Assembly: GCA_027624135.1 (NCBI GenBank)
Contig: JAQBXL010000002.1
Location: 1-62,545 of the forward strand
Direction: 5' to 3'
DNA: 62,545 nucleotides
DNA from: Chloroflexota bacterium
Lineage (GTDB): Bacteria; Chloroflexota; Dehalococcoidia; Lucifugimonadales; UBA3495
The notes beneath the pieces are model-generated. The model searched no databases, had not been told where the DNA came from, and saw only the letters and a list, made by a program, of their open reading frames with translations. Numbering within the stretch: position 1 is the stretch's first letter; each line of letters begins with the position of its first letter. Shown here piece by piece: positions 3,214 through 12,820 of this stretch. The position numbers and the translations under genes are program-made.

Positions 3214-3425
3214 ATTAATCCTCCAAAATCTTTCGCCTATCTTTCGCCTCGATGCCAGGGCCAGGGGCATAAAAAATCCCTGCACCAAAGACACGCGGCA
3301 CAGGGAGTCAATCACTCCAAGTTTCTTTCCGTCGCGCCTGGGCGGGCGGCTTGCGCCTTTATCCCCTATGGGGACCCACTTTCTTTGGCGTATTACTTAT
3401 TAAGTTGTGAAACCGTGCTGTTAAT

Positions 3426-7005: not shown

Positions 7006-7080
7006 TGGAGCCCAGTGGCGGAATTGAACCGCCGACCCCGTTCTTACCAAGAACGTGCTCTACCTCTGAGCTAACTGGGC
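7006..7080 (-). tRNA. tRNA-Thr (anticodon GGU), CCA encoded
   Basis: I folded the reverse complement by hand into a cloverleaf: acceptor GCCCAGT/ACTGGGC, anticodon stem CGTTC/GAACG, loop TTGGTAA, T-arm GGCGG-TTCAATT-CCGCC. Confidence 0.9.
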
Positions 7081-7164
7081 TGATTGCTAAATGGTTGCTA
7101 GTTTTTTATGCCGTTGCGTATTCGTGCTTTCGTTTTTTCGGGCATTGTCCGGAATATTCTAGGT

Positions 7165-7252
7165 TGGTGGAGGGGGCAGGATTCGAACCTGCGAAGCCCT
7201 TCCGGACGCCAGATTTACAGTCTGGTGGCTTTAACCACTCACCCACCCCTCC
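7165..7252 (-). tRNA. tRNA-Tyr (anticodon GUA), long variable arm, CCA encoded
   Basis: Acceptor GGAGGGG/CCCCTCC, anticodon loop CTGTAAA, long variable arm, T-arm GCAGG-TTCGAAT-CCTGC. Confidence 0.9.
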
Positions 7253-7373
7253 AGGCATATAAATCTTCGCACATCTAACGGTCTCGACGCAATCGAGGGA
7301 GACGATTAGATTCTCACCAGATCTGATCGAGATTGCTCCGCCAGAACCCATGCCAGCGAGACTGATTCTCAAG

Positions 7374-7445
7374 AGCCCCAGAGGGGATTCGAACCCCTAA
7401 CCTGTCAATTACAAATCGACTGCGCTACCATTGCGCCACCGGGGC
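7374..7445 (-). tRNA. tRNA-Thr (anticodon UGU), no encoded CCA
   Basis: Acceptor GCCCCGG/CTGGGGC, anticodon loop TTTGTAA, T-arm AGGGG-TTCGAAT-CCCCT. The order Thr-Tyr-Thr-tuf resembles E. coli thrU-tyrU-glyT-thrT-tufB. Confidence 0.9.
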
Positions 7446-7490
7446 ATCGATGACCCTGGCGACGGACTCAGCGAAAATCCGCCTGACACT

Positions 7491-7518
7491 AAAAAATAGC
7501 CCCTTCATGTGATGGGGC
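7491..7518 (-). terminator. Terminator-like hairpin plus U-tract between a consensus promoter and the tRNA cluster
   Basis: The minus strand reads GCCCC-ATCACATGAA-GGGGC-TA-TTTTTT. Confidence 0.4.
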
Positions 7519-7557
7519 CATTAGAGAGGGCCATTTCGTAACCAAGAATCTTACAGA

Positions 7558-7586
7558 ATTATATAAATTAGCCCTGGGAAAGTCAA
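7558..7586 (-). promoter_or_regulatory. Sigma-70-type promoter (TTGACT-N17-TATAAT) facing the tRNA-tuf block
   Basis: The reverse complement of 7581-7586 is TTGACT and of 7558-7563 is TATAAT. The spacer is exactly 17 nt. Confidence 0.55.
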
Positions 7587-7785
7587 TCAGATTTACGCCC
7601 CGGTTTACGAATTTCGGCGCGTTTGCCGCAGGCGCCAGCCGCCTTGACGGCGCCAGTGCCATAATCTACACTTCCAGGCACGGCCCAGTATGTTGCGACA
7701 CCTCCATTTTGCGCGAAAACTCCTGTGTGCGCGAAAACCCCCCAATTTCCAGTTTCGGTCAACGGGTGCGAGCAGTGCAAACCAT

Positions 7786-8298
7786 ATGGACTTAAGAGAA
7801 TACATCAGAGACGTGCCCGATTTTCCGGAACCGGGGATATTCTTCAAAGACATTACCCCCTTGTTGGGCGACGTTAAGGCCTTCGACTACGCGATCACTC
7901 AGTTGGCGAATCATTATCGGGACGCTGATTTCGATGTCATAGTTCCTGTCGAGTCTCGGGGATTCCTATTCGGCGCGCCCTTGGCCCAGGCATTGGGCAA
8001 GTCCATCGTGCCAGTTCGGAAGCCGGGCAAGCTGCCCTCAAAGACCTATTCTGCGGAATATACCCTGGAATACGGCACCAATACCTTGGAGATACACGTG
8101 GACGGGGTGGAGAATGGTCGGAAGGTCTTGATTATGGACGATCTTCTTGCCACCGGCGGTACCCTGGCCGCCGCCGCCCGGTTGGTGGAGAAGGCTGGAG
8201 GTACGGTCATTGGCGTAGGCGTAATCATCGAACTGACCTTTCTGGAAGGCCGAAAATTGCTGTCTGAGTACGATCTCTACTCGATGATTCAATATTGA
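7786..8298 (+). CDS. apt: Adenine phosphoribosyltransferase
   Basis: MDLREYIRDVPDFPEPGIFFKDITPLL and the PRPP motif VLIMDDLLATGGT. Start set at ATG 7786; the upstream part of the ORF-track call is not conserved. Confidence 0.92.
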   Translation: MDLREYIRDVPDFPEPGIFFKDITPLLGDVKAFDYAITQLANHYRDADFDVIVPVESRGFLFGAPLAQALGKSIVPVRKPGKLPSKTYSAEYTLEYGTNTLEIHVDGVENGRKVLIMDDLLATGGTLAAAARLVEKAGGTVIGVGVIIELTFLEGRKLLSEYDLYSMIQY

Positions 8299-9361: not shown

Positions 9362-10306
9362 TTGAGTCCGGAAGACATTCCCCAAAACAATCTGGAAGAA
9401 AACCGAAAAGACCTGGACCAAGCCGCCATCGACTTCCGTCAGCGCTACTACGGTCCAGATAACAACCCGGTGCCGCCCCCGGCCATGGCCGAATTGGCGC
9501 CTGAAGTGATGCGCCTGGTGGATTCGGTGATCTATGGCGAGATATACAACCGCCCCGCTGTAGATCTGAAGACACGCAGTCTCTGCACCATCGCAGCGCT
9601 CGTGGTGTTGGGCCATAGTCCTCAGATGATCAAACGCCATATCTCTGGCGCATTGCACATCGGAGTCACCCGTGAAGAGATATCGGAGATCATCGCCCAG
9701 ATGGTCTTCTATGGTGGCATGCCGGCGGCGGTGAACGCCTTCCGCATGGCCAAGGAAGCCTTCGACGAGTCGCCCGACGGCCAGCCAGGGACCGCGAAAC
9801 CACGTTCAACGGTTCACTATAAAGAGGAACCTGAGGACTCGGTCTACGGCGTCGCTCCGCCACCAGAACCGGCGGAGGAGTCGCCAGAGGAGGAGTCGCC
9901 AGCGGAGGCATCACCAGAGAAGGCATCAAGAGAAAATACTTCTGAATCTGAGTCCCGCATTAGGGCGCCGGAGCAGCCTCCGATGAAGGCCCAGCGGCCT
10001 CCGGGTCCAGCGGAAAGACCTCCATCTGATAGAAGTAGGAGAGAACGCGATGAAGTTAGGTTTCATCGGGACCGGCAACATGGGGAATCCAATGGCCGCC
10101 AATCTGATCAAAGCAGGCCATCAGCTAACCGTTCACGACCTTCGGCGGGAGGCGGCAACAAATCTTCTGGAGATGGGCGCAAATTGGGTGGACAGCCCAA
10201 AGGAGGCCGTCCAGGGAAACGAAGTGGTGTTCACGTCCCTTCCGGTGCCCCGGGACGTGGAGGCAGTGGTCCTGGGCGAAAACGGAATCCTGGAAGGGGC
10301 AAGTAA
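9362..10306 (+). CDS. Carboxymuconolactone decarboxylase (CMD/AhpD-fold) family protein with a long low-complexity C-terminal tail
   Basis: The N-terminal roughly 140 aa fit the CMD family (GEIYNRPAVDLKTRSLCTIAALVVLG...EISEIIAQMVFYGG). TTG start with GGAG 5 nt upstream. There is no stop until 10306, so the tail overlaps the next gene by 257 nt. Confidence 0.7.
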   Translation: MSPEDIPQNNLEENRKDLDQAAIDFRQRYYGPDNNPVPPPAMAELAPEVMRLVDSVIYGEIYNRPAVDLKTRSLCTIAALVVLGHSPQMIKRHISGALHIGVTREEISEIIAQMVFYGGMPAAVNAFRMAKEAFDESPDGQPGTAKPRSTVHYKEEPEDSVYGVAPPPEPAEESPEEESPAEASPEKASRENTSESESRIRAPEQPPMKAQRPPGPAERPPSDRSRRERDEVRFHRDRQHGESNGRQSDQSRPSANRSRPSAGGGNKSSGDGRKLGGQPKGGRPGKRSGVHVPSGAPGRGGSGPGRKRNPGRGK

Positions 10307-10943
10307 CGGCGCGGTCTTCTTCGATCTTTCCACCAACTCTCCAACCATGATCCGTCGGCTCCACGAGACCTGCGCTGCCAAGGGAGTCACACTTTTGGAT
10401 TCCCCGGTAAGCGGCGGGACCTACGGAGCAGCAGCAGGAACACTTGCGGTGATGGTCGGTGGCGACAAAGCTACGTTTGACCGATATAAGCCGATACTGG
10501 GGGCGATCGGCACGCACGTCGTCTACTGCGGCGATATCGGCAATGGCTCAGTTTGCAAGATCTGCAACAACCTGATGAGCATGGGCACCGGAGTCCTTTT
10601 GGCCGAGGCGTTGACCCTGGGCGTAAAGGCCGGGGTAGACCTGGGGATACTGGCCGACGTCATCAACAATAGCACCGGTGGGTCCAAGCGCCTGGCCGAC
10701 AAATTCCCCCGGTTCCTTTTTAAGGGCAATTTCGAGCCCGGTTTCGCCACCGCCCTCGCTGCCAAGGATGTACGTTTAGCAACCGACCTGGGCCGGGAAT
10801 ATGGGATACCGATGGAGCTTTCCAACCTGGTTGACCAGCGCCACGTGGAGGCACTGTTCCGAGGCTGGGGCGCAGAGGACTCCGACGCCGTAGCCAAGAT
10901 TCAAGAAGAGAAGTCCGGAATTCAGCTTCGCTTGCACGACTGA
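10050..10943 (+). CDS. NAD(P)-dependent 3-hydroxyisobutyrate / beta-hydroxyacid dehydrogenase family oxidoreductase
   Basis: 297 aa. MKLGFIGTGNMGNPMAANL Rossmann motif and HIBADH-like SPVSGG. Confidence 0.88.
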   Translation: MKLGFIGTGNMGNPMAANLIKAGHQLTVHDLRREAATNLLEMGANWVDSPKEAVQGNEVVFTSLPVPRDVEAVVLGENGILEGASNGAVFFDLSTNSPTMIRRLHETCAAKGVTLLDSPVSGGTYGAAAGTLAVMVGGDKATFDRYKPILGAIGTHVVYCGDIGNGSVCKICNNLMSMGTGVLLAEALTLGVKAGVDLGILADVINNSTGGSKRLADKFPRFLFKGNFEPGFATALAAKDVRLATDLGREYGIPMELSNLVDQRHVEALFRGWGAEDSDAVAKIQEEKSGIQLRLHD

Positions 10944-11005
10944 TCGGCAAACCCTTTTTCATTGAGTCCGGTTGTATCCAGTAAACCCTTAGATCGGAGG
11001 AAAGA

Positions 11006-12049
11006 ATGACTACTAATGAAATGGAACGGTCCAAGATTGTGGAATCCAGTGACACAGTCGAGGCCATCGAAGAGTGTTACAGGATGGGGTGGAGCGACGG
11101 TCTGCCGGTGGTGCCGCCTGTCGACTACAAGGTCAGAGAGATGCTGGAAATGTCCGGGTTCACCGGCGAAGAGGAGATAATCTCCTTGGAGATGCGGAAC
11201 CGGGTGTTGACGTCGGAGAATGTGGCGGCCAACGCTGTGATGGCGGGTTGCCTCCCCGAGTATTTCCCGGTCCTGATCACCACCCTAAAGACATTGGAAG
11301 AAGAGAAGAACTTCGTTCACATGGCTTCGGCCTCCACCAGTTCTCCGGCCATCTTGATGGTGCTGAATGGACCGATCCGGGACCAGATAAGCGCCAACTA
11401 TAAAGACGGTCTACTTGGGCCGGGCAACCGGGCCAACGCCAGCTTGGGTCGTGCTATCCGCCTCTGTTTCATCAATGGCTTCGACGCCCGGCCTGGCACG
11501 CTCGACCGGGGAACTCTAGGCAATCCCAGCAAATACACCCTGTGCTTCGCCGAGAACGAGGAAGACTCCCCCTGGGAGCCGATGCACGTCGCACGGGGAT
11601 TCAAAAAGGAAGACAGCACCGTTACTGTTGCGGTCGCCTACAACCCAATCACCGTCAACAACTCCTACGGCCACACCGGTGAGTCAATCCTGGCAGCCAT
11701 CGCCGACACCCTCAAATCGGCCGCCATGTCCTTTCGGTTCCCGTCCCAGTGGGTGCTGGTCATCGGCCCGGAACATGCGATCACATTGAACGACGACGGG
11801 TGGACCAGAAAGGGGATCCAGGAATACATGATGGAGAACGCGGCCCGGCCCCAGAGTGAACTCATCCGATTGGGAATCGCCCAAGGACCGGAACGCCAAG
11901 GCGACGACAAGATCATCCGCCGCTGTGCCCAGGACCCTGAAGATATCCTAGTGCTCATGGGCGGCGGCACCGGCGGGCGAAACAGCGCCATCATCGACAC
12001 CACCCGGTTCAAGATCAGGACCACCAAGATCGGAGTCCCCAAGGAATAA
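11006..12049 (+). CDS. Conserved protein of unknown function (GWSDGLPVVPP motif)
   Basis: 347-aa ORF with RBS GGAGG and coding-like composition. I recognise no catalytic motif. Lies 136 nt upstream of the UGSC selenoprotein gene. Confidence 0.75.
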   Translation: MTTNEMERSKIVESSDTVEAIEECYRMGWSDGLPVVPPVDYKVREMLEMSGFTGEEEIISLEMRNRVLTSENVAANAVMAGCLPEYFPVLITTLKTLEEEKNFVHMASASTSSPAILMVLNGPIRDQISANYKDGLLGPGNRANASLGRAIRLCFINGFDARPGTLDRGTLGNPSKYTLCFAENEEDSPWEPMHVARGFKKEDSTVTVAVAYNPITVNNSYGHTGESILAAIADTLKSAAMSFRFPSQWVLVIGPEHAITLNDDGWTRKGIQEYMMENAARPQSELIRLGIAQGPERQGDDKIIRRCAQDPEDILVLMGGGTGGRNSAIIDTTRFKIRTTKIGVPKE

Positions 12050-12185
12050 CCGCCATCATTATTGGCAGGCAAGAAGACCGCCAGAGCCTTGCTTAATGCA
12101 GGCTCCAGTGTATGATTAGGGGAATCCAATCTTCTGGCTATCCAAACCGCCTGGAGCGGAGATAATCGTAAGTCTGGGAGGAATC

Positions 12186-12755
12186 ATGGCTGAGACCGTA
12201 ACAGTAAGAAACATGAGACTCGTTAACCCCACCGGAACGTCGTTGTCCTCGGGTGATTTCCAATTGAACGACCGTCCTAACTCCCTTTCGGGGATGACCT
12301 TGGGCCTGCTGGAGAATTCCAAGGCCAACTCGGATAAGGTTCTTTACGAACTGGGCCAGATGTTGAAAGAGAAGTACGACCTGAAAGACATCGTCTACTT
12401 CAACAAGCATTCAGCGTCCTTGCCCACCAAGCCCGAAGTGGTACAGGACATGGTGAACAAGATTGACGTCTTGATTACCGGGATCGGTGATTGAGGCTCT
12501 TGCAGTTCGTGCAGTGTGCACGACGGGATCGAGATGGAGCGCCTAGGTTTGCCGACCGCTTCGATTATCACCCATGTATTCAACAACACGGCCAAGGCCA
12601 TGACGCGCATGATGGGCGTGCCTGACTTCGAGTACATCGTCGCTGAGCACCCTCTATCTAGTTTGACCGACGAGCAGTGCCGGGAACGGGCTGAGACTCT
12701 CCTGCCCGACGTTGAGCGAATCCTCCTTGGGAGCGCAGTCGCCAACACCATCTAG
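12186..12755 (+). CDS. UGSC-family selenoprotein (Sec at codon 103; UxxCxxC motif)
   Basis: ORF-track fragments 12186..12494 and 12516..12755 share a frame and are joined by TGA 12492-12494. The read-through gives ...VLITGIGD-U-GSCSSCSVHDGIEMERLGLP.... RBS GGGAGG sits only before 12186. A SECIS-like hairpin follows the TGA, and the terminator comes after 12755. Confidence 0.8.
12507..12523 (+). promoter_or_regulatory. Candidate bacterial SECIS hairpin for the UGSC gene
   Basis: UCGUGCA-GUG-UGCACGA (7 bp, or 6 bp with loop AGUGU). Begins 12 nt after the UGA, with G/U in the apical loop. Confidence 0.6.
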
Positions 12756-12781
12756 GAGCGCAAACCCTACTGAGCAGCTAA

Positions 12782-12820
12782 CGGGATGCCCCGATGTAAT
12801 CAGGGCATCCCGTGTTTCGT
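12782..12820 (+). terminator. Intrinsic terminator after the UGSC gene
   Basis: Perfect 10-bp stem CGGGATGCCC/GGGCATCCCG with an 11-nt loop, followed by TGTTTCGT. Confidence 0.55.

Follow-up and report, generated by a model that had tools for sequence, protein, structure and literature searches.

Since the mid-2000s, the UGSC proteins have been counted among the prokaryotic selenoproteins most abundant in marine and freshwater metagenomes. The family, the 'UGSC-containing protein' of Zhang and Gladyshev, was guessed to be thioredoxin-like, with 255 selenocysteine (Sec) versus 21 Cys forms in the Global Ocean Sampling (GOS) data (PMC2398784). The literature searched describes an abundant selenoprotein of unknown function (PMC2398784, PMC1976440, PMC9312934, PMC13188914), and a 2026 review still calls it uncharacterised (PMC13188914). 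Here we analyse a UGSC gene together with the gene of a 347-aa protein directly upstream of it, both located on a 62,545-nt stretch of a Chloroflexota contig (JAQBXL010000002.1) that we refer to as the window. An initial annotation, made from the sequence alone, stated that neither protein has an assigned function. No published function for UGSC or its partner was found in the literature searched, but the statement was slightly too strong in that UGSC is catalogued and a fusion was reported in 2008 (PMC2398784). This 'UGSC/Unknown_1' fusion from GOS metagenomes is presented in Fig. S1A of that study and, in the passages dealing with it, mentioned without further analysis; it joins UGSC to a conserved domain of unknown function that carries a conserved Cys. 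Unknown_1 is very probably the 347-aa family, since all UGSC-containing fusions examined here carry that family. The same passages describe neither an obligate two-gene module nor links to the thioredoxin system.

Comparison with the described families revealed no difference between the window gene and the UGSC family (PF24696/NF041046), including the Sec residue in D-U-G-S-C and the Sec insertion sequence (SECIS) hairpin. The pair, as proposed here, shares with GrdB+GrdE and PrdB+PrdA the outline of a U-x-x-C Sec subunit and a substrate-handling subunit that receive electrons from thioredoxin and thioredoxin reductase. It differs from them in that neither subunit has detectable sequence or profile homology, that GrdA/C/D or PrdC do not accompany the UGSC pair, and that it is found mainly in aerobic heterotrophs and haloarchaea. 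With MsrA/MsrB, ArsC, PAPS reductase and the peroxiredoxins, the pair would have in common a thiol/selenol relay that the thioredoxin system recycles, and an AhpC/TSA-type redoxin replaces UGSC in some members of the 347-aa family; the 347-aa subunit, however, lies outside all of these families and folds. The functional outline proposed here resembles the thioredoxin-dependent Cys/Sec reductases (Msr, ArsC, PAPS reductase) equally as well as Grd/Prd.

The 347-aa family and UGSC form a real, nearly obligate two-gene module. An alignment of the 347-aa family was scanned against one genome per species and returned 80 loci of 34-91% identity from at least 8 phyla, with representatives in Chloroflexota, Methylomirabilota, Acidobacteriota, Binatia, Burkholderiales, Pseudomonadales, SAR324, Actinomycetota, and Poribacteria. 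A UGSC gene, detected by the UGSC hidden Markov model with the TGA read through, was present in 69 of the 80 loci; in 66 it was on the same strand and <1 kb from the 347-aa family gene, usually 0-200 nt downstream. Three of the 11 UGSC-negative loci stop at a contig edge. The reverse test was blind to the partner and scanned metagenome contigs with a TGA-containing DNA pattern encoding G-D-U-G-x-C...D-G. All 120 loci obtained in this way contained true UGSC genes, and the 347-aa family was adjacent on the same strand in 104 of them (83 upstream, as in the window, and 21 downstream). Of the 16 exceptions, 12 offer <500 nt of flank on one side; among the 108 loci that are informative, 104 are thus paired. 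An adjacency that recurs in 66/80 and 104/120 loci, and also as fusions, is far beyond chance, and in both directions of the test UGSC has a GWxDGLPVVPP protein as its conserved neighbour. Several genomes encode at least two paralogous pairs (for example L043 + L070, L013 + L058, L009 + L044), and in one Dehalococcoidia clade (L004, L005, L007; ~7017-7912) the two genes are separated by ~895 nt, not by <200 nt.

Clustering of the neighbouring open reading frames (ORFs) in ~200 loci disclosed no third conserved gene, the maximum being a short-chain dehydrogenase/reductase (SDR) in 13 loci. The HIBADH-like and NuoF-like genes seen beside the window pair recur in 10 and 7 of these loci, respectively, in close relatives only, and in locus L001 other genes intervene between the pair and the NuoE/F block. 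The conserved unit is therefore the pair alone. Profile matches confirmed the gene identities given to the flanking MBL/CMD/HIBADH run and the NuoE/NuoF/FdhA-like/FNR block, but their inclusion in the module had to be rejected. Neighbours of the pair are varied genes of organic-acid catabolism, among them TRAP/TTT transporters, family III CoA-transferases, SDRs, and LysR regulators, a context that points only loosely to small organic acids as substrates.

Fusions in either order account for about a quarter of 149 representatives of the family. UGSC precedes the 347-aa domain in 32 representatives, of which ~13 are full-length and mostly Cys forms, whereas ~19 begin just past the Sec codon, indicating that Sec forms were shortened by the gene callers. 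The opposite order was found in 4 representatives, each ending exactly at the Sec codon, and Sec-type fusions were seen directly in loci L021, L029, L034, and L061. To represent the assembly we modelled the natural fusion P0149 (561 residues), which stands in for the window pair. The model has a predicted local distance difference test (pLDDT) score of 93.6 and a predicted template modelling (pTM) score of 0.93; as low confidence is confined to the linker, both domains together are predicted to form a single compact body.

Genomic and physical linkage to thioredoxin reductase (TrxR) and thioredoxin was observed in both fusions and operons. P0210 joins the 347-aa family to a TrxR-type flavoprotein (CAVC), with a Sec-UGSC gene abutting upstream on its contigs, and P0208 is a triple fusion of Sec-UGSC, the 347-aa family, and FeThRed_B, the catalytic chain of ferredoxin-thioredoxin reductase (FTR-B). 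An AhpC-TSA/Redoxin domain identified with Pfam takes the place of UGSC in P0211, P0245, P0246, P0252, and the ORF at 5506-7068 of L051; P0253 has a similar CPTC N-terminus and no Pfam match. These six redoxin-type fusions carry CPTC, CPTS, CPTT, or CATC, and common to all of them is a linker motif, P-G-C-[GA]-[SA]-[KR], ~50 residues ahead of the DGLP motif. This linker motif recalls D-U-G-S-C.

A TrxR-like gene flanks UGSC in loci L035, L065, and L093. The gene order is trxB-trxA-347-aa-UGSC in Arthrobacter sp. ERGS1:01 and LysR-347-aa-UGSC-trxB in Roseovarius sp. THAF8, while trxB is within the same cluster as the pair in Variovorax sp. SRS16; all three organisms carry the Cys form. Haloterrigena turkmenica has the order UGSC(Cys)-347-aa-TrxR-like, Natrinema and Halalkalicoccus (H. 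jeotgali) have UGSC-347-aa, and Paracoccus ferrooxidans has Sec-UGSC-347-aa, with Paracoccus versutus as another cultured host. Taken together, the fusions and operons outline a route from NAD(P)H or ferredoxin to a disulfide reductase, then (through thioredoxin) to the UGSC selenol/thiol, and finally to the 347-aa subunit. P0136, P0137, P0155, L037, and Arthrobacter carry fused small CxxC domains of NifU-like type, with weak Pfam matches (E about 0.008).

Two of these replicons deserve a closer description. On the Arthrobacter sp. ERGS1:01 plasmid (L209, 1-7836), genes for an ABC transporter, a CocE/NonD hydrolase, and phosphosulfolactate synthase are co-directional with trxB, trxA, the 347-aa family gene, and UGSC(Cys), whose product bears the NifU-like CxxC as a tail; the run hints at a possible organosulfonate or sulfite chemistry. 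On plasmid pFER4 of Paracoccus ferrooxidans (L211, 1646-3792 and 10404-12179), selB is located 3.3 kb downstream of the Sec-UGSC/347-aa pair, and genes for TusA, DsrE, and a cysteine desulfurase are just upstream of it.

The window UGSC protein is a typical full-length member of its family, scoring above the cut-off of both profiles used: PF24696 in Pfam (E = 7.5e-55, 186 bits, cut-off 25) and NF041046 in NCBIfam (141.4 bits, cut-off 125). Its motif reads GIGD-U-GSCSSC, and TGA occupies the U position in every readable UGSC motif of the genome loci with the exception of L080, one Cys form. The loop of the SECIS hairpin was found at +21/+22 from the UGA in 168 of 186 unique UGSC genes, and in the listed stems pairing is preserved by U-A, G-U, or A-U at one position. 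The folding energy of the SECIS region alone was no better than that of shuffled sequences, and we take the hairpin as real because of its conserved position. The UxxCxxC pattern to which the initial annotation attached weight did not hold as a family feature: only U-x-x-C (D-U-G-S-C) is conserved, and 68 of 141 paired family members have the third Cys. This residue co-occurs with Cys180 of the partner (65:3 versus 46:27; Fisher p = 1e-6, uncorrected for phylogeny). In the window, and at the corresponding position of the 186 UGSC genes, the two sides of the SECIS stem are contributed by the third Cys codon and by a His/Leu codon situated three codons further on, so that RNA pairing may partly constrain those amino acids.

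In the fusion model, the UGSC domain folds into an alpha/beta sandwich of the flavodoxin-like type; the Sec-equivalent residue follows a strand by two positions and immediately precedes a helix. Its structural matches were the GH3 C-terminal domain, lumazine synthase, the flavodoxin domain of flavodiiron proteins, and azoreductase, all flavodoxin- or Rossmann-like alpha/beta folds. The model thus suggests that the UGSC family adopts a flavodoxin-like fold with Sec at a helix N-terminus, and the thioredoxin fold that had been guessed earlier (PMC2398784) was set aside.

The partner belongs to a very large family with >7,700 close matches, all without a recorded Pfam domain and named at most "hypothetical protein", and with 4,402 cluster representatives at 50% identity. 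Its hallmark is G-W-[TS]-D-G-L-P-V-V-P-P-T, which corresponds to GWSDGLPVVPP at residues 28-38 of the window protein. Asp31, Gly32, Pro34, Gly81, Gly122, Gly148, Asn157, and Gly198 are invariant in 153 full-length members, Arg142, Asn144, Arg149, and Glu183 are present in at least 98% of them, and Cys180 in 80%. Cys82, found in 146 of the 153 sequences (95%), is positioned just ahead of helix 84-98, and this near-invariant residue is adjacent to the conserved polar residues Asp31, Asn76, Arg142, Asn144, Arg149, Asn157, and Glu183. A glycine-rich segment, G-P-G-x-R-A-N-A-T-I-G-R, leads into the start of helix 142-159 in the model and is a putative anion-binding site.

Database searches did not place this family. 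The window 347-aa protein had zero matches in Pfam or NCBIfam, and 57 family members searched at lax thresholds against Pfam (E ≤ 5) and NCBIfam gave scattered single matches only, which converged on no family. The kinship to GrdE/PrdA that the initial annotation had raised was not supported, as no match appeared in Pfam-A, where GrdE/PrdA would be represented. Neither sequence nor profile searches with the 347-aa and UGSC families retrieved anything from the PDB. The AlphaFold2 model of the 347-aa protein alone is of high confidence (pLDDT 93.2, pTM 0.92), and Foldseek detected no significant neighbour of it in the PDB (best E = 0.01, TM 0.24); matches to class I fumarate hydratase, cyanuric acid hydrolase, and PurM-like proteins were discarded as noise. 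The family showed no nucleotide- or metal-binding motif. Of the 149 representatives, 9 are tandem duplications of the 347-aa domain; such duplications occur in a single ~713-aa polypeptide or as back-to-back copies (L074, 5-2150; P0123, P0124, P0126, P0129, P0138, P0140), and one UGSC-less member lies directly 3' of nitrile hydratase beta and alpha genes with a VCTLCSC motif (L064, 4641-7023).

We propose, with a probability of roughly 0.6, that the pair is a selenol/thiol relay reductase fed by thioredoxin, in which the 347-aa protein is catalytic. This reading is based on the fusions to, and adjacency with, TrxR, thioredoxin, FTR-B, and AhpC/TSA redoxin domains. The two genes would encode subunits of one enzyme; in many organisms the two parts are fused into one polypeptide. 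The 347-aa protein would be the catalytic, substrate-binding subunit, with a fold that has no solved relative, and the 189-aa UGSC protein a flavodoxin-like redox subunit presenting Sec103-x-x-Cys106 at the start of a helix. The selenolate of Sec103 would attack the substrate, or an enzyme-substrate adduct on the 347-aa partner, with formation of a selenenylsulfide between Sec103 and either Cys106 or Cys82. Thioredoxin and TrxR, or a ferredoxin-dependent equivalent, would then re-reduce this bond, the net reaction being a two-electron reduction of a small organic substrate that is probably carboxylated or anionic. What we observe is that the genes are obligately coupled and often fused, that the predicted assembly is compact, that Sec is recoded, and that physical linkage to disulfide-reductase modules recurs; the direction of electron flow, the roles of Cys82 and Cys180, and the nature of the substrate are what we infer. 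The initial annotation, reasoning by analogy with Grd/Prd, suggested that the 347-aa protein could be the substrate-binding partner of a small reductase: a reductase module is indeed the best reading, while homology to Grd/Prd was not found. A wider claim, that the 347-aa family provides the catalytic subunit for a widespread and unrecognised class of Se-dependent, thioredoxin-fed reductases acting on a common environmental small molecule, is more tentative, and we would give it slightly less than an even chance.

Several observations weigh against the proposed reductase. In the genome sample, about 10% of the 347-aa family members lack a UGSC gene in their vicinity, and adjacent TrxR genes were found in only 3 of ~200 environmental loci, so that most systems would need the housekeeping thioredoxin system. 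Furthermore, P0176 and the fusions of Vibrio europaeus and Sporomusa termitida lack U/C-x-x-C. In the latter two, the UGSC-like domain reads ALADMGTS (V. europaeus pVEu; L214, 4323-6008) and ALGDMGTS (S. termitida pSPTER; L215, 4317-6041); both redox residues are gone, Cys82 and Cys180 are retained, and aconitase X and DUF126 genes are alongside. The 347-aa domain thus also occurs where no redox-active UGSC accompanies it.

These fusions are the kind of evidence expected if the 347-aa protein were redox-neutral, for example an isomerase, hydratase, or lyase using a Cys nucleophile or acid-base catalysis, with UGSC in a structural or regulatory role. The Sec/Cys pair would then be a redox switch or the keeper of a reduced Cys82, outside turnover. 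Retention of Cys82 and Cys180 in the redox-dead forms (Vibrio, Sporomusa, P0176), the adjoining dehydratase genes of the aconitase X/DUF126 type in Vibrio and Sporomusa, and the family's lack of a visible nucleotide- or metal-binding motif all fit such an enzyme. Sec is nearly universal over Cys, however, which would be unusual for a mere switch, and the dedicated fusions and operons with TrxR, thioredoxin, FTR-B, and redoxin imply that electrons are supplied continuously, as is typical of stoichiometric reductases; we regard a redox-neutral enzyme as unlikely. Passage of persulfide or selenide in a sulfur/selenium trafficking or Fe-S-related module, in place of reduction of an organic substrate, could account for the NifU-like domains and for TusA, DsrE, and cysteine desulfurase near the Paracoccus ferrooxidans pair. 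Such associations are rare, though, the NifU matches do not reach the threshold, the sulfur genes of Paracoccus point in divergent directions, and the general context is organic-acid catabolism with several paralogous pairs per genome, all of which makes trafficking improbable.

In a true Grd/Prd-type reductase, UGSC would correspond to a miniature GrdB/PrdB, and the 347-aa protein to a self-cleaving pyruvoyl proprotein like GrdE/PrdA, with the substrate amine bound as a Schiff base and Sec cleaving the C-N bond. U-x-x-C-x-x-C in the window UGSC protein and the combination of a Sec subunit with a larger partner agree with this idea, as does the Arthrobacter operon, where trxB-trxA stand ahead of the pair as in grd operons. 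Several results speak against it. Fifteen UGSC proteins had no PF07355 match even at E ≤ 5, and hhalign against marine GrdB/PrdB-like selenoproteins gave probabilities of 0.1-0.3%, with 0.1% for 105 UGSC sequences, the GrdB-side profile being thin around Sec. No Pfam family was matched at E ≤ 5 by the 57 members of the 347-aa family, only about half of the UGSC family has the third Cys, and GrdA/C/D or PrdC-like genes were not found among the clustered neighbours of ~200 loci. In addition, the hosts are mostly aerobes, and Cys82 is at a helix-helix junction in the model, a placement between two helices that is not known from pyruvoyl cleavage sites. We hold a reductase of the Grd/Prd type to be quite improbable. 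The gap of 136 nt and the separate ribosome-binding sites, and nothing else, would suit two independent genes that are neighbours by accident in the window, an explanation that two-way synteny, fusions in both orders, and the compact fusion model refute and to which we assign practically no weight.

For the comparison above, full-length marine GrdB/PrdB-like sequences were rebuilt from contigs; a search with a GrdB-like GOS read gave only N-terminal fragments ending at Sec. Stand-alone 239-aa proteins of this type (PF07355, U-P-M-C) were found in marine Marinimicrobia and related metagenome contigs (L205, 2501-3220; L207, 2405-3124) with no Grd/Prd partner genes nearby. This PF07355 protein is another orphan marine selenoprotein.

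The features of the window locus are collected in Table 1. Coordinates and translation agree with the earlier description of a 347-aa ORF with GWSDGLPVVPP, 136 nt 5' of the UGSC gene and on the same strand, and Shine-Dalgarno-like sequences are indeed present ahead of both ATGs. The single terminator assigned to the end of the pair is a more equivocal case. A strong hairpin is present (centroid -24.5 kcal/mol; z = -3.3 for a 61-nt stretch), but its U-tract is weak, and a consensus promoter/terminator scan, which gave nothing useful in general, did not call it.

Table 1. Genes and sequence signals of the 347-aa/UGSC pair in the window (positions in nt)
Feature	Position	Strand	Remarks
347-aa protein gene	11006..12049	+	Proposed to be catalytic; its family is very large and unannotated
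UGSC-family selenoprotein gene, 189 aa	12186..12755	+	Sec103 and Cys106 in D-U-G-S-C-S-S-C
Shine-Dalgarno-like GGAGG	10996..11000	+	5 nt 5' of the ATG of the 347-aa gene; read from the sequence
Shine-Dalgarno-like GGGAGG	12176..12181	+	4 nt 5' of the ATG of the UGSC gene; read from the sequence
In-frame UGA (TGA) decoded as selenocysteine	12492..12494	+	Read-through in the UGSC gene
SECIS-like hairpin UCGUGCA-GUG-UGCACGA	12507..12523	+	Begins 15 nt past the U of the UGA
Strong hairpin, terminator-like, with weak U-tract	12781..12813	+	3' of the UGSC stop codon

On the 5' side, the pair is preceded by genes for APRT, an MBL-fold lactonase-like protein, and CMD/PcaC-like and HIBADH-like proteins; on the 3' side are a thioredoxin-like 2Fe-2S ferredoxin (2Fe-2S_thioredx), a Nuo51-type flavoprotein, a molybdopterin oxidoreductase, and an FNR-like reductase. 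The nearest genome is a Chloroflexota metagenome-assembled genome with 91% identity across the 347-aa protein. In the CMD/PcaC-like ORF (9362-10306, + strand), the Pfam domain is confined to residues 47-132 and is followed by a low-complexity tail of ~180 aa rich in Pro, Arg, Gly, and Ser; the ORF overlaps the start of the HIBADH-like gene (10050-10943, + strand) by 257 nt in a different frame. The tail may reflect an over-long ORF in GC-rich DNA or may be genuinely disordered. Elsewhere in the window are a tRNA-Thr/Tyr/Thr cluster (7006-7445, - strand) and a ribosomal protein L10 leader (3262-3406, - strand). ARAGORN and Rfam showed no tRNA-Sec in the whole window, and no sel genes were seen among the ORFs read between 7.7 and 21.7 kb.

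The window is an ordinary member of a widespread, functionally orphan system. This work shows that UGSC is one half of a near-obligate, thioredoxin-linked two-part system whose other half is a huge, unannotated family without a solved structure, and it turns a long-standing orphan into a testable hypothesis with cultured hosts. If the wider claim of a new reductase class is correct, a function would finally be assigned to UGSC, which is among the most abundant orphan selenoproteins of ocean metagenomes. The several paralogous pairs per genome in SAR202-type Chloroflexota suggest a substrate-diversified family of catabolic enzymes, which would be relevant to the turnover of dissolved organic matter.

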